NCBI GenBank assembly: GCA_035637115.1
Contig: DASPXV010000197.1
Location: 6,799-70,798, forward strand
Origin: Vicinamibacterales bacterium
Lineage (GTDB): Bacteria > Acidobacteriota > Vicinamibacteria > Vicinamibacterales > 2-12-FULL-66-21
DNA: 64,000 bases
Direction: 5' to 3'
The stretch's first letter is position 1. The number at the start of each line of letters is the position of its first letter. A program made the position numbers and the translations under genes. Of the stretch, positions 22,976 to 64,000 are shown piece after piece. The notes beneath the pieces are model-generated. The model saw nothing but the letters and a program-made list of their open reading frames with translations. It ran no database searches and was not told the DNA's origin.

Positions 22976-23635
22976 GTGACGTTCTCTCATGCTTCGCGCG
23001 GCCGGCTGACCACGCGCGACCTGGGGCGGTTTGCCGGTGACACGCTGTTCGATCGGATTGCCCGCGCCGTCTGCCAGGCCGGCTGTCTGCCACGCAAGGA
23101 ACTTTATGAAGCGTGGGAGATCGCGCGGCGCGCTCGACGTCTCTTCCGCGGCGGGCGCGTCGTGGACTTCGGCGGCGGCCACGGACTGCTCGCCCACGTG
23201 ATGTTGATCCTTGACGACTCATCGCCGGGGGCGCTTGTCGTCGACAAGGAGACGCCGCCATGCGCGATCGCGCTGCAGGATGCGCTGGTGACTGCGTGGC
23301 CGCGATTGTCAGGACGCGTCGTACGGTTCGAAGGGGATCTCGAGCAGGTCGATCTGCATTCACCGGACGTTGTGGTGGCAAGCCATGCCTGCGGCCGATT
23401 GACCGACGTTGTCATCGATCGGGCATGTGCTGCGGGGGCATCGCTCGCGATTCTGCCGTGCTGTCACGATCTGGAGGCGTGCGATGCAGCGGGCCTCGAG
23501 GGATGGATGGACGAAGCGCTGGCGATCGATGCGGTCCGTGCGCTGCGGCTGCGCGCGCGGGGCTACCGCATCTGGACGCAGGCGATTCCCGCGGAGATCA
23601 CGCCGAAGAACCGGCTGCTGCTCGCGGCGCCTTAG
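22976..23635 (+). CDS. SAM-dependent methyltransferase (Methyltransf_32-like)
   Basis: [27 protein letters not shown]. Confidence 0.85.
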
Positions 23636-23796
23636 CAGCCCGTGGTGAAAGTCTGGCGTTGCACCGAGACGGGCGAGGCGCCCCGCCGGCAAGGCGCGAC
23701 GACCGAGAATACCGGGAGTATTTGAGCGAGGAGCAACGCAGCCGGCGGGGATGGATCGACGGTCGAATGCAGCCAGCCTTTCACCACGGGCTGCTA
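23633..23796. repeat. 164-nt nested-hairpin / MITE-like element, copy 1
   Basis: 19-bp perfect TIR TAGCAGCCCGTGGTGAAAG; inner 10-bp stem CCCCGCCGGC/GCCGGCGGGG; homologous to 53669-53833. Confidence 0.85.
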
Positions 23797-25113
23797 CTAG
23801 CGGTTGAACGGCCGCTCCTGGATCCAGCTGAAGCCGCGATTGAGCAGGAGGAAGTTGCTGCGATCGTACAGGTGCAGGTCGAACCGCACCTTGTGTCCAT
23901 CCATTTCACCCTCGAGGACCATCCGATCCGGCGCCTGCTGCTGGATGGCAAACCGGGCCCCCCAGTTCTTGTCCGCAGCGTTCGTCAGGGCGAGCGTCTT
24001 TGCGTTCATGTCCGCTTTCGCGCCGTATACCTGGAATGAATCGTCCATGCGCTGGAACGAGATCGATGTCGGGTTCTGGAAAATCAAGCGGCGCCAGCGT
24101 CCGTAATCGCCGATCAGTCCGGCGCGGAGCACGCCATCCACCTGCATTTCTTCCACGTTCCAGATACCGTACAGCGGAGACTTGGGCGCGCCGCCGCCTC
24201 GCTGCATCCAGGCCTGTCGCGCGCTGTACAGGTTCATACCGATGATGTAGGCCGCGAATGCGAGTTGCAGCGCCATCGCGAGGCGGCGCGGCCTCGCGAC
24301 CACGATCGCCGATACCAGCCGCCGCACCTCCGGCGCCAGCAGGACGAGGCACATGACGATCAGGTGAAACGAGAAGAGTTTCACCGGTACGTCGTAGGTC
24401 ATGTTCAACGTGAAGATCTGGATCGAGTCGGCGAGCACCACCAGCGCGCCCAGTACCGCCAGCGGTGGCACGAACAGCAGTACTGCGCCGGTGAGCTCCG
24501 CAAACCCGGCGAACCGTTCGTAGGGGAACGACGCGCCGACCGAATACCAGAGCACGCCCATCGGCGAGAAGTTGCCGAACGGTTCCACGAGACGCTGCAG
24601 GCTCGGCGCCGGCATCTGCAGCGGGATCGCCTTGACCATACCGTATCCGATCATCGTCGCGCCAACCGCGAACCGCAGAAAAATCCGGAACCATTTGTTC
24701 AATCGCACGTAGTTCGCGCGCTTGCGGTCGGCGATCGACCACGCGGCACTCACCGCGACAGCGAAGACGAGCAGACAGAATGCGTGGACCCAGTCGACCG
24801 TCTTGTCGCCGCTCCCGGTGTTGATTGTCATGAACGGCGTGGTGACCTTGAAGACGTGCGTCGCGGTCCAGGACACGACCCCCTTCATGTAGCCCGTCGC
24901 GCCGAGATTCGGCAGGTTGCCGACCGGCAGGATCAACAGGCCTCCGAGCATCTGCGTGGTCAGCACGTACAGGCTGATGTAAACAAACGTCAGCCGAAAA
25001 GCGATCCGGGTCGCGAGGCGCCAGGGGACCTGCTGATCGTAAAAGACCGTGGGCTCCTGTTCCGCGGGAACTGCGTCCACCGGCGGCGTATCGATAGTCC
25101 TGAGGTCGAGCAT
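23797..25113 (-). CDS. DoxX-like multi-pass membrane protein with C-terminal soluble domain
   Basis: YGMVKAIPLQM, PMGVLW, N.TYDVPVKLFS, LYGIW, RGFSWIQERPFNR. Confidence 0.8.
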   Translation of the reverse strand: MLDLRTIDTPPVDAVPAEQEPTVFYDQQVPWRLATRIAFRLTFVYISLYVLTTQMLGGLLILPVGNLPNLGATGYMKGVVSWTATHVFKVTTPFMTINTGSGDKTVDWVHAFCLLVFAVAVSAAWSIADRKRANYVRLNKWFRIFLRFAVGATMIGYGMVKAIPLQMPAPSLQRLVEPFGNFSPMGVLWYSVGASFPYERFAGFAELTGAVLLFVPPLAVLGALVVLADSIQIFTLNMTYDVPVKLFSFHLIVMCLVLLAPEVRRLVSAIVVARPRRLAMALQLAFAAYIIGMNLYSARQAWMQRGGGAPKSPLYGIWNVEEMQVDGVLRAGLIGDYGRWRRLIFQNPTSISFQRMDDSFQVYGAKADMNAKTLALTNAADKNWGARFAIQQQAPDRMVLEGEMDGHKVRFDLHLYDRSNFLLLNRGFSWIQERPFNR

Positions 25114-28450: not shown

Positions 28451-28482
28451 GAATGCAGCCAGTCTTTCACCACGGGCTGCTA
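28451..28482. repeat. partial (right end) copy of the 164-nt hairpin element
   Basis: gaatgcagccagtctttcaccacgggctgcta, 31/32 identical to 23765-23796. Confidence 0.85.
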
Positions 28483-29922
28483 AAACACGCCGATCGTGGA
28501 CAACGCCGGGCACGCGCGGGATCGCACGATCGAGACGCGCAGGTGACGCGTCGTCAGGGGGTCGATGCGCACGATGCGCTTATGGCCGATCGTCGTGCCC
28601 GTCGCGACCTGGGTCCAGCCTGCCGGCTCTTCCGCTTCGATCGTCCACTCCTCGACACGCTGGCCGAGCGCGATCGCTTCCTGCAGCACGATGCGACCGA
28701 AAGTGATCGGTGCCGCCCACTCCAACTCGATTGATCCCGCTGTGACGCCGTCGTCCGTCGCCCAGTAGGTGTTCGAGTCGCCGTCAATGGTGCGCGCGGC
28801 GCCGAAGGTCGCGACGCCGCCGCGCGTGCTCGTCGATCGTGCGGCCGCCTTTCTGGCCAGATCGGTGCGATAGGTATCGGCGATTCGGCGGCCGAACTCG
28901 CGAAGCCGTTCCGCGTCCACGTCAGGTATCAGGCCGCGACGATCGGGCGGAATGTTGAGCAGCAGGTTCGCGCCGCGTCCGACCGATTGTTCGTAGATCT
29001 CGACGAGACGTTGGACGCTCTTCACCTTCTCGTCTTCAGCGGCGTGGTGGAACCAGCCCGGGCGAATCGACACGTCGACCTCCGGAGGCGCCCAGTTCGG
29101 CCCGTCGGGACTGCCCGCGGCGATCGTGGTGTATTTCGGGTGTCCAGGATAGATACGTGAGAGGTCGATCGGATTCCACGACGTCTCGAACGCGACGCCT
29201 TTCTCGTTGCCCACCCAGCGAACGTCGGGACCGGCGTCGCTGAACATCACCGCGTTCGGCTGCAGGGTCCGAACGAGCTGCCACGTGTTGTTCCAGTCGT
29301 AGTACGTCGAACCATCAATCCGCCGGCGCTCGCGCGCGCCACCGTAGTAGCCATCACCGCCATTCGCGCCGTCGAACCAGACTTCGAACACGGGGCCGTA
29401 CTGTGTCAACAGCTCGCGCAACTGGTTGCGGTAGTAATCCAGGTATGCGGGCCGCCCGTAGTCGGCGTGATTGCGATCCCACGGTGAGAGATAGACGCCG
29501 AACTTCAGGCCGTACTCCGCACACGCGCGCGCGAGATCGCCGACGACGTCCCCTTGTCCGTTCTTCCATGGACTGCGCCTGACCGAGTGCGCGGTGAATC
29601 GGCTGGGCCACAACGTGAACCCGTCGTGATGCTTCGCCGTGAGGATCAGTCCTTTCATCCCCGCATCGCGAGCGACGGAGGCCCATTGCCGCGCGTCGAG
29701 CGCCGTGGGATTGAAGACCTCCTCCGGTTCGTCGCCGTATCCCCACTCCTTGTCGGTGAACGTGTTCACCGTGAAGTGGATGAAGCCGTAGAACTCGAGC
29801 TCGTGCCATGCGAGCTGGCGCGGCGAGGGAAGCGCACCGACAGGAAGAGGGGGGCGGACCTGCCGCTGTGCCGCCAGCAGAAGTCCCGATGCGACGAGGA
29901 GTGCGAGCGCGCGCAGCCGCAT
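28480..29922 (-). CDS. alpha-L-fucosidase (GH29) with C-terminal F5/8-type domain
   Basis: FIHF, LTAKHHDGF.LW, YLSPWD, WFDGA, VRWVGNE, DVSIRPGWF, SVGRGANLLLN. Confidence 0.93.
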   Translation of the reverse strand: MRLRALALLVASGLLLAAQRQVRPPLPVGALPSPRQLAWHELEFYGFIHFTVNTFTDKEWGYGDEPEEVFNPTALDARQWASVARDAGMKGLILTAKHHDGFTLWPSRFTAHSVRRSPWKNGQGDVVGDLARACAEYGLKFGVYLSPWDRNHADYGRPAYLDYYRNQLRELLTQYGPVFEVWFDGANGGDGYYGGARERRRIDGSTYYDWNNTWQLVRTLQPNAVMFSDAGPDVRWVGNEKGVAFETSWNPIDLSRIYPGHPKYTTIAAGSPDGPNWAPPEVDVSIRPGWFHHAAEDEKVKSVQRLVEIYEQSVGRGANLLLNIPPDRRGLIPDVDAERLREFGRRIADTYRTDLARKAAARSTSTRGGVATFGAARTIDGDSNTYWATDDGVTAGSIELEWAAPITFGRIVLQEAIALGQRVEEWTIEAEEPAGWTQVATGTTIGHKRIVRIDPLTTRHLRVSIVRSRACPALSTIGVF

Positions 29923-29949
29923 GCGGCCGAATGATAACCTCCCCGATAC

Positions 29950-30573
29950 ATGCGCGTGGCGATCGTGGGAGGGCCCGGTATCGGCAAGAGCACGCTGGTC
30001 CGGCAGCTGGGCGACCTGTATCACAACGGCTCGTACGGCGAAGGGGAGAAGGGCGTCTGGGATCCGCGCGTGCTCGAGGACATCGAGCGCGGACGCAACC
30101 CGATCGGCGTCACGGCATATTTCGCGCGCCTCTATGACGCGAACTATCGCGACGCCGCGGCGCACGACGCGAACGGCAAGGTGATCTTTTTCGAGGGCGC
30201 GCGCATCACGCTCGAGGCGCACCTTGCGGAGTACGCCGCCGAGTACCACGCCGAACTGCGCAGAGTCCTCGCGATCGGCGACGCGTGGAATCCGGATCGC
30301 GTGATCGTGCTCACCTCCAGCACCGATACGATCGACAAGCACATACGCCAGCGTGCGCGCCCGTTCGAGAACGCCGAGAACATGGTGCGCCGCTTCCGCC
30401 TGATCGACGGCGAGTTCCGGCGTCTCGCGCCCTTATATCCAAATACCGTCGTCATCGATCGTGACAACAAGGAGTTCCACGAGCGCGAGGGGCTGCTCCA
30501 GATAATCAGGCTGGCCCGCCTCCCCCAGTTTAAAGAGATTCCTTACGAACAGATGGATCGATTCGGGGGGTAG
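29950..30573 (+). CDS. P-loop kinase, deoxynucleoside kinase-like
   Basis: AIVGGPGIGKST Walker A; PD.VI.L and R.RPFE lid-like motif. Confidence 0.65.
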   Translation: MRVAIVGGPGIGKSTLVRQLGDLYHNGSYGEGEKGVWDPRVLEDIERGRNPIGVTAYFARLYDANYRDAAAHDANGKVIFFEGARITLEAHLAEYAAEYHAELRRVLAIGDAWNPDRVIVLTSSTDTIDKHIRQRARPFENAENMVRRFRLIDGEFRRLAPLYPNTVVIDRDNKEFHEREGLLQIIRLARLPQFKEIPYEQMDRFGG

Positions 30574-51013: not shown

Positions 51014-53671
51014 ATGACTGTTCGGGAGCTCATCACGCGCTTGAAAGCTGTCGCCGGTTTCGGCCGTCGCGATGACGATCTCGCGCGCGAGCTCGCGTTC
51101 CACGCGCAGATGCTGGAGGAGCGCCACCGCGCGCGTGGCCTCACACCCGAAGCGGCGCGGCGAGCCGCGAGGCTGGAGCTCGGCGGCGACGCGCAGATTG
51201 CCGAAGAATGGCGCGACCAGCGCGGACTGGCGTTCGTGGATACGTTGAAACAGGACGTGCGGTACGGACTGCGTGTATTGCGCCGTACGCCCGGTTTCAC
51301 TGCTGCCGCGCTGCTCACGCTGACGCTCGGCATCGGGGCCAATACAGCGGTCTTTACGATCGTTTATGCCGTCATCCTGAAGCCGCTGCCGTATGCGGAT
51401 CCAGATCGGCTCGTTACGATCGCGGACCGGAACGCTGACGGCTCTGTGTCGGGTGTCGGGCTCGCGACGGTAACCGACTGGCGTGAGCGGAGTCGCAGCT
51501 TCGAGCAATTCGCGATGCTGCGTTTGTGGATGCCGACTGTGGTCAGTAACGGTGAAGGAGAGCGGCTCCCGGCCGTGCGTGTGAGCTGGAACTACTTCGA
51601 CGTCATGGGCGCGCATCCCGTTCTCGGCCGCAGCTTCACCCCAGAGGACGATCGCGAGGACGGCTGGCACGTGCTGGTGCTGAGCGATCGCCTGTGGCGT
51701 CGGCGTTTCCGCGCCGATCCGCTGGTGGTGGGACGCACGGTGGAGGTGAACGATCAGGCGTTCCGCATTATCGGCGTCATGCCGGCGTCCTTCGAACCTC
51801 TCGATGCGCAGCGCTACTTCAACACGTCCGCCGAAGTCTGGGTGCCGATCGGAGACGACCAGGCGGGGTGCCGTCTGCGCTGCCGACCCGTTTACGCGAT
51901 AGGGCGGTTGAAGGAAGGCATCACCGTGGCTGCCGCGATGACCGAGATGAACGGCATCCGAGAGCAGCTGCGCAGGGAATACCCGGCGGATTATCCCGCG
52001 GGTGCCATTTCGGTGATGCCGATGCACGAAGCGCTCACCGGTCACGTACGAACGGCCCTGAACGTCTTGCTCGCGTCGGTTGGCTTGGTGCTGCTCATCG
52101 CATGCGCGAACGTCGCGAACCTGCTCGTGGCACGCGCTGCCGCGCGCGGCCGCGAGCTCTCGCTGCGGGCCGCTCTTGGTGCCGGGCGCGGGCGGATCGC
52201 GCGTCAGCTCCTCACCGAGAGCCTGCTTCTCAGCGCCGGCGGTGCGCTGGGCGGGCTGCTTCTCGCGATGATCGCGATTCGCGGCCTTGCGTTGATCGCG
52301 CCCGTGACCTTGCCGCGGGTGGAGCACGTCGCGATCGACGGCCGCGTCCTGGTCTTTACGGCAGCGATCGCGGTGCTGACGAGCGCCCTGTTCGGGCTTT
52401 TGCCGGCCTGGCGCGCCGGCGCCACCGATGCGCAACAGGCGCTCGCGATTGACTCGCGGACCAGCGCTGGCGGTCGATCGCGGATCCGCGCCATCCTTGT
52501 CGTAGCGGACCTCGTGCTCGCACTCGTCCTGCTCGCGGGCGCGGGGTTGATGATCCGCACCGTCGCGGCCCTCACGCACGTCAGCCGCGGCTTCGACGCC
52601 GAACGCGTCCTGTCGCTGCAGTTCGCACTCACCGGCAAAGCCTTCGGCGACGATCGCACAATCGTCGCGTTTCAGCAGCGCGCGCTCGACAGGATACGGA
52701 CGATACCGGGTATCGAGAGCGCGGCGTTGGCCGGGCAGATCCCCTTCGCGCGAGCGGGAGGCGGCGCGGGCGACTGCTGGGGATTCCATGTCGCGGGGCG
52801 AATGAACGCAAATCCGGCGGCCGATCCCTGTGTCGAGCGGTTCGCAATCACGCCCGAGTACTTCCGCGTGCTCGGCATCCCTGTGCTGTCGGGACGCGCC
52901 TTCACCGCCGAAGATACGTCGGACGCGCAGCGTGTCATCGTGATCTCACACTCGATCGCGAAAGCGTTGTGGGGAACAGCAGATCCCATCGGCTCGCAGG
53001 TCCGGATCGGCAGCGCCGCGCGAGGCGCGTGGCGAACGGTGGTGGGCGTGGTCGGGGACGTGCACGTCGACGATCTCGCGGCTCCCGTCGTGCCCGCGAT
53101 GTACACACCGGAAACGCAAATCACATCCGCGTACCTGACGGCGATCGTCAAGTCATCGGGCGATGACGCGGCGTCACTGGCGCCGTCCGTCCAGCGCGCC
53201 CTCCACGAGCTCGATCCCGGCGTGCCGGTGTATGGTGTCGCCACGCTGACGTCGCTCGTCGACAAGTCCTCGGCGCAGCGCCTCTTCGTCACGCGGCTGC
53301 TCGCCGGATTTGCCGCGGCCGCCGTGCTGCTCGCGGCGATCGGTCTTTACGGCGTCGTCTCATACGGCGTCGCGCTTCGTACGCGCGAGGTCGGCGTCCG
53401 CGTCGCGCTGGGTGCGCAGCGCGCGGACGTGGTGCGGCTTGTCCTCACTGGTGGCTTGAAGCTCGTCGTGCTCGGCGTTGCAGGAGGGCTGGCCGCCGCA
53501 GCCGCGAGCACGCGCCTGCTCGCGACTCTCGTGTTCGGTGTTCGCCCGATCGATCCGCTCACATTCGCGGCCGCGGCAGGTCTGCTGACGCTGGTCGCGC
53601 TTCTCGCCCACTGGGTGCCCATCCGCCGCGCCCTTCGCATCGATCCCGCGGCGGCGCTGCGAGCCGAGTAG
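51014..53671 (+). CDS. ADOP-type ABC permease with N-terminal prefix domain
   Basis: DLARELAFH..RGLTPEAARRAAR prefix; IACANVANL; REVGVRVALGA. Confidence 0.9.
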   Translation: MTVRELITRLKAVAGFGRRDDDLARELAFHAQMLEERHRARGLTPEAARRAARLELGGDAQIAEEWRDQRGLAFVDTLKQDVRYGLRVLRRTPGFTAAALLTLTLGIGANTAVFTIVYAVILKPLPYADPDRLVTIADRNADGSVSGVGLATVTDWRERSRSFEQFAMLRLWMPTVVSNGEGERLPAVRVSWNYFDVMGAHPVLGRSFTPEDDREDGWHVLVLSDRLWRRRFRADPLVVGRTVEVNDQAFRIIGVMPASFEPLDAQRYFNTSAEVWVPIGDDQAGCRLRCRPVYAIGRLKEGITVAAAMTEMNGIREQLRREYPADYPAGAISVMPMHEALTGHVRTALNVLLASVGLVLLIACANVANLLVARAAARGRELSLRAALGAGRGRIARQLLTESLLLSAGGALGGLLLAMIAIRGLALIAPVTLPRVEHVAIDGRVLVFTAAIAVLTSALFGLLPAWRAGATDAQQALAIDSRTSAGGRSRIRAILVVADLVLALVLLAGAGLMIRTVAALTHVSRGFDAERVLSLQFALTGKAFGDDRTIVAFQQRALDRIRTIPGIESAALAGQIPFARAGGGAGDCWGFHVAGRMNANPAADPCVERFAITPEYFRVLGIPVLSGRAFTAEDTSDAQRVIVISHSIAKALWGTADPIGSQVRIGSAARGAWRTVVGVVGDVHVDDLAAPVVPAMYTPETQITSAYLTAIVKSSGDDAASLAPSVQRALHELDPGVPVYGVATLTSLVDKSSAQRLFVTRLLAGFAAAAVLLAAIGLYGVVSYGVALRTREVGVRVALGAQRADVVRLVLTGGLKLVVLGVAGGLAAAAASTRLLATLVFGVRPIDPLTFAAAAGLLTLVALLAHWVPIRRALRIDPAAALRAE

Positions 53672-53833
53672 TGTCCCGTGTCAGAAGTCCTGTGCCGCAC
53701 TGAGGGTGGCGATGCGCCCGGCTGGCAAGGCGCGACGACCGAGCATGCCGGGAGTATGTGAGGGAGGACCAAACGCCGTCAGGCGGGATGCAGCGCCAGC
53801 CGAATGCAACAGGACTTCTGACACGGGACACTG
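53669..53833. repeat. 165-nt nested-hairpin / MITE-like element, copy 2
   Basis: 24/25-bp TIR tagtgtcccgtgtcagaagtcctgt; core ggcaaggcgcgacgaccgag identical to copy 1. Confidence 0.85.
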
Positions 53834-56205: not shown

Positions 56206-56623
56206 TTGAACTCGAAGGAGTCGAAGGGATCGAAGAGTCTCGAAGGAGCTCTGTAAGATCACGTCGAAGGGTCGAAGGTCGAAGGAGCTTTGTAAATCAC
56301 GTCGAAGGTTCGAAGGTCGAAGGTTCTGGCGAGTCGTTAGAGACAACTTCGACCTTCGACGCTTCGAAGCCGAGCGGCGCCTTCGAGCTCCTTCGACCGT
56401 CGCACCTTCGACCTGATTTCGCAGAGATCCTTCGAGCGTCTTCGATACCTTCGCACCTTCGACCTGATTTTGCAGAGATCCTTCGACCGCTTTCGATACC
56501 TTCGATCCCTTCGAGTTCAATTACAAGCCCCGCAACTGCTAGCTCCGTCGACCTTCGCACCTTCGACGTGACCTGGAAAGCTCCTTCGACCCCCTTCGAT
56601 ACCTTCGATCCCTTCGAGTTCAA
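56206..56623. repeat. TCGAAG/CTTCGA-rich imperfect palindromic satellite
   Basis: About 29 TCGA by hand count; ends ttgaactcgaagg / ccttcgagttcaa; internal ~39-nt and ~51-nt sub-repeats. Confidence 0.85.
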
Positions 56624-61881: not shown

Positions 61882-61898
61882 CGGACCGGCGACCACTG

Positions 61899-62049
61899 GG
61901 GGTCAGGTCTGCAAATCGCCGCACCCTGGGGTCAGGTCTGTAAATCGCCCCACGGCGGGGTCAGGTCTGGAAATCGGTCGAGACATGGCACCAGCAAAGG
62001 CGATTTGCAGACCTGACCCCTGGTTCGGGCGTTGTTTAGACCTGACCCC
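61899..62049. repeat. REP/BIME-like cluster GGGGTCAGGTCT (3 direct + 2 inverted copies)
   Basis: Direct copies at 61899, 61928 and 61957 (29-nt period); inverted agacctgacccc ending at 62020 and 62049. Confidence 0.85.
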
Positions 62050-63271
62050 CGGGATGGGCCCAGATCTGCGTCAGCTCGACAATGACGGCGACGGCGGCCT
62101 CTAGGTCCTGACGCGACGTCCATTCGAGGCGCGAATGGAAGTTGTGCTCTCCGGCGAACAGATTGGGCGTGGGAAGTCCCATGAACGAGAGCCGCGAGCC
62201 GTCGGTTCCGCCGCGGATCGGGTTTTCAATCGGCGCCAGGCCGACGCGACGGATCGCCTCGCGCGCGCGATCGACGATTCCCGGATGCCGATCCAGCACC
62301 TCGCGCATGTTGCGGTACTGCTCCTTGAGCTCGAACTCGACGCGTGTGCCCGTCTCCGCCGCCACCGTGCGCGTCAGCGCCTCGAGCAACGCCTGCTGAT
62401 CGCGCAGCCCCGACGTCACGAAGTCGCGGAGCAGCACGCGCACCGACGTGCGGTCAACCGATGCCTCGATCTGGTACGGGTGGACGTAACCCTCATACCC
62501 GCTCGTCGTCTCCGGCGAAAGGCGCTTTCGCGGAAGCCGATCGACGAAGCGTGAGGCCGCCTTGATCGCATTGACCATCCGCCCGTGCGCGTAGCCGGGA
62601 TGTGTGTTGAAACCGAGGAAGGTGATCCGCAGCACGTCGGCGGAAAAGCTTTCGAACTCGAGCTCTCCCTTCTTACCGCCATCGAGCGTGTACGCGCACG
62701 TCGCGCCAAACCGCTGGACGTCGAATTTGTCCGCGCCGCGGCCGATCTCTTCATCGGGCGTGAACCCGATGCGGATCGTTCCATGCGGAATCTCCGGGTG
62801 CGCCATCAGGTGCGCAGCCGCCTCCACGATCGCCGCGACACCCGCCTTGTCATCCGCACCCAGCAGCGTCGTCCCTGACGCGGTCACGATGTCGTTCCCG
62901 ATCTGCTCGGCGAGATCCGGATAATCCGCGGCACGCAGGATTGCCGACGGGTCATCCGGCAGGACGATGTCGCTGCCGTCCCATGCGTGGTGAACGATCG
63001 GCGTCACGTTCGTGCCGGACATCTCCGGGGACGTGTCGACGTGCGCGATGAACCCAACGATCGGCGCGTCGTGCGAGATCGTCGCCGGCACGGTTGCCAT
63101 CAGGTAGCCGTTGCCGTCGAGGACCACGTCCGCAAGGCCGATGGCTCGCAGTTCGTCGGCGAGAAGACGCTGGAGGACCAGTTGCCCGGGCGTACTCGGA
63201 CACGTCGCCGAGCTTTCGGCGGCGCGTGTATCGATCGCGACGTAGCGCAGAAACCGATCAAGAACGGTCAT
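62036..63271 (-). CDS. pepT: peptidase T (tripeptide aminopeptidase)
   Basis: RFLRYV.IDT, PSTPGQ, AHVDT, LGADDKAG, TPDEEIG, PIRGGTDG, HNFHS. Confidence 0.95.
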   Translation of the reverse strand: MTVLDRFLRYVAIDTRAAESSATCPSTPGQLVLQRLLADELRAIGLADVVLDGNGYLMATVPATISHDAPIVGFIAHVDTSPEMSGTNVTPIVHHAWDGSDIVLPDDPSAILRAADYPDLAEQIGNDIVTASGTTLLGADDKAGVAAIVEAAAHLMAHPEIPHGTIRIGFTPDEEIGRGADKFDVQRFGATCAYTLDGGKKGELEFESFSADVLRITFLGFNTHPGYAHGRMVNAIKAASRFVDRLPRKRLSPETTSGYEGYVHPYQIEASVDRTSVRVLLRDFVTSGLRDQQALLEALTRTVAAETGTRVEFELKEQYRNMREVLDRHPGIVDRAREAIRRVGLAPIENPIRGGTDGSRLSFMGLPTPNLFAGEHNFHSRLEWTSRQDLEAAVAVIVELTQIWAHPGGQV

Positions 63272-64000
63272 CTATCCTGAACTCGAAGGAGTCGAAGTCT
63301 TCGAAGGACTTCGAAGGATCTCCTTCGACCTTCGGCCCTTCGAAGTATCGAAGATCGAAGGTGCTCCTTCGCCTTTCTTCGAGTCCTCCGACTCCTTCGA
63401 GTTGAGAAGAATCGCGAGCTGCTGCGATGACGACTCGTGGACGATCAGCTGGTCGCAACGGCGGATCGCCTCGCGCGGATTCCGATCCCGCGCGAGTTCC
63501 ACCGAGAAGACATCGTGACACGCATGCAGGTAGCGCACGATCGTGCCGAGCGCGTTTCCCTGGTACGCGAGCCAGGTTCCGAACAGCCTCGCGGCGAGCC
63601 ATCGTTTGACGGCGGGATCTTCGGGCGCCAGTTCGGCGGTCGGCGGCGGCGCGAGCATGCCGAATGCGTCGAGCACGGCGTGCTCCAGCGGGAGTCCCTC
63701 GGACGGCGTCCACTGTTCGATGCGCGCGGTGACGTCGGACAGCGCGCGCAAGGCAACACGCGGCGCGATGCCGCTGCGCGTCAGCAACTCGATCGCGCGC
63801 TGCTCCCACGCCGTGTAGCTCTCCAGATCCATCATGACGCCAGGGCGCAGCACCGGCGGCCAGACATCCCGCGCATCGAGTCCGTCGAGCACGCCGTCAC
63901 CTGTCAGCGATGCCGGTGCATCGACAATGCCCACAGGACCGTCGTCATCGAACAACATGCCGGCTGCCGTCGGGCAGTAATGCGACAACGAGATGAAGGT
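63272..64000 (-). CDS. hypothetical protein (possibly YkgJ/FliB-like Cys cluster), 5' end outside window
   Basis: SLSHYCPTAA motif; frame open to the window edge; abuts the pepT start. Confidence 0.5.
   Translation of the reverse strand, partial: TFISLSHYCPTAAGMLFDDDGPVGIVDAPASLTGDGVLDGLDARDVWPPVLRPGVMMDLESYTAWEQRAIELLTRSGIAPRVALRALSDVTARIEQWTPSEGLPLEHAVLDAFGMLAPPPTAELAPEDPAVKRWLAARLFGTWLAYQGNALGTIVRYLHACHDVFSVELARDRNPREAIRRCDQLIVHESSSQQLAILLNSKESEDSKKGEGAPSIFDTSKGRRSKEILRSPSKTSTPSSSG
63280..63403. repeat. second TCGAAG palindromic element, within an ORF 3' end
   Basis: aactcgaaggagtcgaag ... ctccgactccttcgagtt; same ends as 56206-56520. Confidence 0.85.

Follow-up and report, generated by a model that had tools for sequence, protein, structure and literature searches.

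A family of short intergenic elements in Acidobacteriota in which one hairpin core appears between the ends of unrelated IS families

Results

Two related elements start in the stop codons of their upstream genes

We analyzed a 64,000-nucleotide stretch of a Vicinamibacterales genome (contig DASPXV010000197.1 of assembly GCA_035637115.1), referred to below as the window. Two related elements lie in this window, one behind a methyltransferase gene (copy 1) and one behind a MacB/FtsX permease gene (copy 2), and each starts in the stop codon of its upstream gene (Table 1). A first-pass annotation of the same DNA had described two collinear copies with a series of paired blocks, and we found the copies and all of the listed blocks where it had placed them. 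Its location of the elements stands, but its boundaries do not: the terminal TAG that it included is target sequence, and at the same time the upstream stop codon, in both cases, and the true ends enclose 158 bp in copy 1 and 161 bp in copy 2. The target duplication is imperfect in both copies; in copy 1 this follows from the flanks CTAC and TTAG, which agree at only two of four positions.

Table 1. Coordinates of the two elements, their parts and a solo arm in the window
Feature	Position	Strand	Remarks
MITE copy 1 (type A, IS1182 ends)	23636..23793	+	158 bp, CAG...CTG
Copy 1 left target tetramer TTAG	23632..23635	+	Contains the TAG stop of the upstream methyltransferase ORF 22976-23635
Copy 1 left TIR	23636..23652	+	17/17 vs left end of the IS1182 at G000:C142:210-1665
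Copy 1 conserved core, 80 nt	23676..23755	+	Inner stem, AAG/CAA internal loops, G·A ladder, apical hairpin; 92 bits (covariance model)
Copy 1 ladder	23697..23733	+	Three tandem G·A/A·G pairs with covarying Watson-Crick pairs between; capped by the ATAC-CGGGA-GTAT hairpin
Copy 1 right TIR	23777..23793	-	16/17 vs the same C142 IS1182 left end; 13/17 vs its right end
Copy 1 right flank CTAC	23794..23797		Agrees with TTAG at 2/4
Solo right arm of a type-A element, without core or left arm	28451..28482	+	Terminal CTA holds the stop of ORF 28480-30342 (minus strand)
Copy 2 left flank TA	53669..53670		Part of the permease stop codon; right flank is TG
MITE copy 2 (type B, IS630 right-end TIRs)	53671..53831	+	161 bp, G...C
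Copy 2 conserved core	53712..53792	+	83.7 bits (covariance model)

The two copies are 79.5% identical across their central 112 nt, and, in agreement with the earlier remark, conservation is higher in the interior than at the ends. The arms of the window copies are complementary at 96% over 25 nt and 100% over 24 nt. Folding z-scores were -8.2 for copy 1 and -11.0 for copy 2, and none of 200 shuffled sequences was equally stable. We compared orthologous sites in genomes of the same genus, which are too diverged for the target sequence itself to be read. The same gene pair lacks the element at the copy 1 site in genome G114 and at the copy 2 site in genomes G040 and G114. Thus, both window copies are insertions. 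No IS1182 or IS630 transposase is encoded on the window's contig, which agrees, for these two families, with the earlier statement that no mobilizing enzyme is present. A scan of copy 1 found no sigma-70 promoter or terminator-like site. The window gave no Rfam match at the gathering score (best relaxed match for copy 1, E 0.51).

Four other repeats were seen in the window. A nested inverted-repeat array of TCGAAGG/CCTTCGA units lies between an HrpB helicase gene and a convergent ORF (56206-56623), and an imperfect palindrome of 130 nt occupies 63277-63406. At 61898-62053, in the space between convergent genes, inverted repeats of the GGGGTCAGGTCT type are clustered; they presumably resemble REP/TIRtron repeats. 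A perfect 25-bp inverted repeat with GGGGACAGTCCCC arms (2095-2152) fits the GGGGWSAS motif as given in the text of PMC3733652.

The elements are multicopy and concentrated in Acidobacteriota

Using a profile and a covariance model, we found 20 copies in the source genome of the window (G000, an assembly that is 85% complete). By their ends, two are of type A, two of type B, 14 of type C and two of type D. The covariance model matched 22 of 101 Acidobacteriota genomes, G000 counted, and copy number ranged from 0 to 138 per genome, with 138 in G001. A scan of GTDB genomes with the core pattern returned at least 120 loci; among the 120 matches listed, 114 were from Acidobacteriota, three from Thermodesulfobacteriota and one from Myxococcota, and two had no phylum. 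At least eight end types surround the same core while element length stays nearly constant. Partners were traced for types A, B, C, D, E and G; other end types include H, F and A'. Searching PLSDB plasmids with copy 1 (blastn) gave no match, and the core pattern had no match in IMG/VR. Related sequences do occur in RNA libraries: 24 runs contain 5-11% of the query words, and the four that we compared hold contigs of related copies. Since such contigs cannot show strand, ends or level, these runs carry no weight as evidence.

Several rearranged forms were observed. In L385 and L388 (genome G015), whole elements form head-to-tail tandem arrays with a 162-bp period and one common 4-bp spacer. Mini-palindromes collapsed end to end, which keep both TIRs and have lost the core, occur at G000:C228:16938-16968, C82:3641-3670 and C159:6867-6947 and in L164, L178 and L181. 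Larger elements with a second core-like hairpin were found in L237 and L252 (G295), and in L237 this hairpin is inverted. A REP-like hairpin of ~40 nt (CCGGGGTCCCC...GGGGTGGAG) is nested at two fixed inner-stem positions in copies with unrelated end types (L026, L069, L075, L093, L137 and RNA-library contigs). Only in this nested form, and in a subset of copies, was a REP-like hairpin seen.

The ends match three families of autonomous elements

The type A end is that found on the left of a complete IS carried by G000 contig C142. This IS codes for a 464-aa protein with PF05598 (DUF772, 1e-17) and PF01609 (DDE_Tnp_1, 1.8e-9) domains, from which we take it to belong to the IS1182 family; a second IS of the same kind lies on contig C82. 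Searching 251 genomes for type B ends returned non-MITE matches that include six complete elements of 1145-1192 bp coding for HTH + DDE_3 proteins (Pfam on two), which we assign to IS630 on the basis of these domains. The 5' end of copy 2 agrees with the right end of these IS630 elements at 18 of 20 positions at best, in L152, and PF13358 was found in its sister elements L149 and L153. Type C corresponds to the left ends of three of the IS630 elements. The type-C copy that we compared, one of the 14 in G000, matches an IS630 left end at up to 29 of 31 positions and the right end at 20 of 31. None of the three IS630 matches in the G000 assembly was an assembled element with B- or C-type ends. 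Type D is identical over 22/22 positions to the left end of a DUF4096 element in G189, presumably an IS5-family member judging from that Pfam domain, whose coding region is a 51-aa fragment at a contig end; G189 also holds 48 D-end matches. The type E end matches a PF13358 element on G000:C181 at 20/22 positions. Type G has a looser likeness (18-25 of 32) to the end of L264, which is called IS630-like from its translation only. A D-like end 186 bp downstream of an IS256-family transposase (L176, G274:C1:330531) has no matching second end and was not counted as a partner.

We compared the target duplications associated with each end type. A 4-bp duplication flanks 38 of 51 type-A copies, a TA duplication flanks 8 of 10 type-C and 2 of 5 type-B copies, and a 3-bp duplication flanks 5 of 6 type-D copies. 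Other lengths fit at most two copies of any end-type set. Copy 2 may depend on IS630: its ends fit those of an IS630, but the TA duplication is seen in only 2 of 5 type-B copies and is imperfect in copy 2 itself, and the matching IS630 is not among the elements assembled in G000. The first-pass annotation had proposed recognition through the core; because the duplications track TIR type, recognition instead appears to occur via the TIRs. Within type A, 27 of 51 copies combine one left-like and one right-like arm. Both arms come from a single IS end in copy 1 and in the compared type-C copy.

The core is not part of the autonomous elements examined. In 10 autonomous-IS loci, the best covariance model score was 16.5 bits, compared with 82-101 bits for true copies. 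When we looked for the core inside autonomous elements, L096 alone among 162 core loci of at least 1 kb matched the five transposase queries. The elements are short, non-coding, multicopy and dispersed, they have TIRs and target duplications, they share TIRs but no interior with ISs, and empty sites exist. These are the properties of type II MITEs, as the earlier proposal of a non-autonomous element had anticipated. Compared with IS1182, IS630 and IS5, they share the terminal 17-31 bp and the duplication length but have no transposase gene, and the core does not come from any of the 10 IS loci.

These results make it near certain that the elements are MITEs with borrowed IS ends. Judging from the sequences compared here, each end type is likely mobilized in trans by the matching transposase. 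The identity of the ends also changes how the outer stems are read. Differences between the outer stems of the window copies had been taken for compensatory RNA changes. Since these stems are the ends of different autonomous ISs, this covariation is simply the difference between an IS1182 TIR and an IS630 TIR. The first-pass annotation had added that such an outcome would make the elements ordinary MITE subfamilies. The TIR variants do equal the ends of different ISs, but that consequence does not follow, because partner ISs of three unrelated families flank one homologous core.

The core has a covarying, strand-specific fold

We aligned 84 distinct cores without gaps across 80 columns, leaving out 7 odd-length cores of 91; the search pattern had imposed the AAGGCGCGA, ATA and TAT columns. 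In this alignment, 92.6% of cells in the structure are paired, compared with 26-45% in slid controls, and there are 256 two-sided changes compared with 94.5 in shuffles, a count that can be inflated by relatedness of the cores. The check on a larger set of copies that had been suggested thus returned real covariation in the core, and the sequence described earlier as an invariant core itself covaries once more copies are compared.

At its center the core forms a ladder, 5'-C GA x GA yy GA G / T GA zz GA w GA G-3', built of three tandem G·A pairs with one Watson-Crick pair in the first gap and two in the second. We recounted with the ladder and apex unconstrained, which gave 139 distinct cores. 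The six G·A positions remain G·A in 99-130 of these, and the pairs between them vary. Among 49 distinct ladders whose two flanking G·A pairs are intact, 45 form a Watson-Crick pair at the lone x-w position (CG 24, GC 14, AT 4, TA 3). The apical stem covaries too in the unconstrained set. Two further pairs are near-fixed as G·U-type (81/84 and 66/84 cores). In one subfamily, G·A pairs have become Watson-Crick (columns 24-56 are A-T in 14/84). A CAAGGCG...CAACGC loop module is kept in distant members, in which apex and ends vary. K-turn and CsrA-site readings of the core were ruled out by inspection against the respective consensus sequences.

The fold belongs to one strand. With RNA parameters, the sense strand is the better folder in 78 of 84 cores and the asymmetry is -5.3 kcal/mol; with DNA parameters, the corresponding values are 64 of 84 and -1.1 kcal/mol. 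The complementary strand of the ladder would carry T·C mismatches. The G·A ladder and G·T pairs may therefore allow one strand to fold tightly while the duplex stays an imperfect palindrome. The core covariation is real and the fold is strand-specific, as the first-pass annotation had suspected.

Orientation relative to genes and replichores

We scored the orientation of copies relative to flanking genes in two samples, using crude codon-model gene calls. In the first (95 placed copies), co-directional sites were 11 sense and 16 antisense, and convergent sites outnumbered divergent sites 17:7. In the second (three long-contig genomes; 74 of 80 copies), co-directional sites were 23 sense and 10 antisense (p 0.035), and convergent and divergent sites numbered 8 and 6. 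Pooled, the co-directional counts are 34:26. The elements had been proposed to be a structured 3'-UTR RNA, and this is unsupported since many copies are antisense to flanking genes. A fixed 3'-UTR role is excluded; a partial orientation bias at the RNA level is possible.

We found no replichore bias in four long contigs (p 0.23-0.94; partial copy lists). In a separate genome, G002 (the source of L027), chromosomal core matches were 4 forward and 17 reverse.

Discussion

Ends have probably been exchanged around an inherited core

From the sequence comparisons above, the elements are probably type II MITEs of ~158 bp that have one hairpin core and the ends of IS1182, IS630 or IS5, each being moved by the corresponding transposase. 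Our best reading is that the hairpin core is the inherited unit of a MITE superfamily and that the ends have been exchanged among IS1182, IS630 and IS5. Because the folded center has been kept while the ends match three unrelated transposon families, the hairpin has likely been a passenger that switched mobilizing enzymes repeatedly. The interiors of IS1182-type and IS630-type copies can be as similar as those of copies that share an end type: the best A-B pair agrees at 102 of 115 positions, and within-type medians are 89 (A) and 97 (B). We examined the history of the interiors with a tree of 97 rows and 115 columns. End types cluster on this tree, with 8 changes of end type against a minimum of 6 and 49.7 in shuffles. 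Copies with IS630 right ends (B) fall among IS1182-ended copies, and copies with IS630 left ends (C) form a separate, well-supported group. The tree is weak, and monophyly was rejected for none of A, B and G (p-AU 0.35-0.59), so the number of swaps is only bounded from below. Whatever the tree, transposase families must have been switched at least twice.

How an end could be exchanged is suggested by the termini. ISs and MITEs share (C)TA(G)-like targets and have termini that are alike in register, so that an IS end could replace one MITE arm. An IS end that landed next to a MITE would provide the substrate, and recombination might then replace the adjacent arm. L096, in which an IS630 sits within the flanking CTAG of a type-A copy, shows the geometry required for end capture. 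Fold-back template switching could then copy the new end to the opposite arm, which would keep the length at 158-161 bp. Copy 1 and the compared type-C copy, with both arms from one IS end, suggest such arm-to-arm copying, but the mixed arms of more than half of the type-A copies indicate that this pattern is not general. Stepwise drift could explain some switches because the termini of IS1182, IS630 and IS5 are few substitutions apart. Such drift between similar termini is unlikely for the 31-bp match of type C, but it is possible for types A, B and D.

What the core may do

The function of the core is less clear than its ancestry, and we considered several explanations for its conservation. 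We tentatively favor the view that the core is selected because it helps the element itself to spread, and that it most likely acts as a hairpin of single-stranded DNA while DNA is replicated or transferred. Selection on spread is favored because new copies arise from master elements in either orientation. The single-stranded DNA form is weakened by the larger strand asymmetry with RNA than with DNA parameters and by the sense lean in one of our two orientation samples. These same observations count toward an alternative with identical MITE anatomy in which the core is selected as RNA. Co-transcription in the sense direction would produce a long hairpin that contains G·U pairs and sheared G·A pairs, and this hairpin might stabilize or process the host mRNA or bind a protein, making such insertions better tolerated. 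The two near-fixed G·U-type pairs fit this alternative, as do the excess of convergent over divergent sites in the first sample and the sense orientation of both window copies, which start at a stop codon. Correia and ERIC elements are described as having RNase III and RNase E effects (PMC10969869). However, the first sample leaned antisense at co-directional sites, convergent sites barely exceeded divergent ones in the second, and copy 1 has neither a promoter- or terminator-like site nor an Rfam match. We regard selection as RNA as possible but doubtful. The broader idea of an independent structured RNA or 3'-UTR motif, with selection on the full 165-nt fold including the outer stems, can draw on the strong folding z-scores and on the related contigs in RNA libraries (whose strand, ends and level are not readable). 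It has to contend with outer stems that are IS ends, duplications that follow the IS family, empty sites and a copy number of 0-138 per genome; it is largely refuted by the end and duplication data, and we consider it scarcely credible.

The core could instead have no function at all, with covariation produced by hairpin-templated repair or template switching and conservation reflecting descent from few master copies. The subfamily in which G·A became A-T is compatible with this, and the mini-palindromes and 162-bp arrays indicate that fold-back errors do occur. Block copying should erase mismatches, yet the G·A pairs are kept in most of the unconstrained cores while the intervening pairs change, and the CAAGGCG...CAACGC module persists in distant members with different apex and ends. 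A functionless core is therefore unlikely in our view. Another explanation is that the core is a portable single-strand initiation signal, similar to a primosome assembly site (pas), that would prime complementary-strand synthesis on a single-stranded form of the element. The core is a strand-specific hairpin with tandem G·A pairs, as a pas would be, although we wrote the ladder pattern post hoc, after ColE1 had been seen. This pattern matches G000 in these elements only (15 matches). It matches ColE1 once, ~45 nt beyond a DnaA-box-like site near the origin, whereas 1 of 2000 simulated ColE1-size sequences matches. Judging from its position, the ColE1 site is probably the n' pas. At least 5000 plasmids carry the ColE1 module, which is also found outside ColE1 contexts, and a single tandem G·A pair occurs in the F-G hairpin of phiX174. 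Several points speak against a pas-like role. GAAGCGG, which we understand to be the pas consensus, is in the ColE1 and phiX174 hairpins and absent from all 84 cores; phiX174 has no ladder; the ColE1 site gets no score from the covariance model, even at E 10; and the elements have no replichore bias. We consider a pas-like core quite unlikely. Apart from these arguments, we observed the origin-proximal G·A-ladder module of ColE1 at L143:1324-1362 and also in L286 and L290, unannotated in the rows listed.

Selection for the element's own spread, the reading that we favor, could take a more specific form. The core might be a transposase-independent selfish module, a G·A-ladder single-stranded DNA hairpin that attracts a replication or repair factor of the host, perhaps much as a pas does, and that survives IS turnover by capturing the ends of active ISs. 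We consider this version rather improbable as it stands, if somewhat less so than a functionless core.

Comparison with known elements

We compared the elements with known systems. Type II MITEs (Correia/NEMIS, ERIC, RUP, Nezha and Chunjie), as presented in the consulted sections of PMC10969869 and PMC3184786, are similarly shorter than 200 bp, non-coding and flanked by target duplications. They also form long hairpins, insert at gene ends and resemble ISs in their TIRs alone. Each of those families goes with a single end type, and according to PMC3184786 their cores have no similarity to each other, whereas here one homologous core bears IS1182, IS630 and IS5 ends. The nearest analogue is the coral CMITE group (PMC2872659; abstract and Discussion). 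CMITEs likewise have interiors that are more conserved than the TIRs, a core of unexplained origin, tandem arrays and a proposed role of the core in transposition. They differ in being eukaryotic, in the piggyBac terminal motif of all families, which places them with one transposase superfamily, and in that no covarying G·A-ladder fold is reported in those two sections. In open-access PMC and bioRxiv literature, we found no prokaryotic MITE with one core between the ends of unrelated IS families, though the census in bioRxiv 2024.01.18.576219, ISfinder and the Geobacter supplements may list these sequences. For multicopy families of Geobacter, neither the main texts of PMC2700814 and PMC2996986 nor 12 of the 19 supplements to PMC2700814 contained the core motifs; the "family of 24 short RNA elements" named in PMC2700814 could be a distant relative.

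The n' pas/ssiA of ColE1 and the phiX174 pas, in the parts of PMC3167613, PMC3640518 and PMC5778457 that describe them, are also strand-specific hairpins with tandem G·A pairs, and an n' pas lies near a dnaA box (PMC3640518, in part). The ColE1 site has 9 + 10 nt of the ladder in common with copy 1; beyond the missing GAAGCGG and the ColE1 site that goes unscored by the model, the apical and basal stems of the core differ from both. REP/RAYT and TIRtron repeats are dispersed intergenic hairpins that occur in Acidobacteria too, by the account in the available text of PMC3733652, but our elements have DDE-type TIRs and duplications and no terminal GTAG/CGTC tag. These ends and target duplications speak against a REP/RAYT or TIRtron identity.

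Implications

MITEs are usually regarded as shrunken ISs or as arbitrary DNA between the ends of one IS. In the elements described here, descent runs through the interior, and the ends can be drawn from any of three unrelated DDE families, each with its own target duplication. The combination of one core, three transposases and natural compensatory ladder variants makes the function and origin of MITE interiors testable. The elements also call for caution, because covariation in long intergenic hairpins can stem from swapped IS ends and not from RNA selection. If the core is indeed a selfish module that captures IS ends, these MITEs would represent a new class of "end-swapping" non-autonomous element that is found in Acidobacteriota and extends into Thermodesulfobacteriota and Myxococcota.
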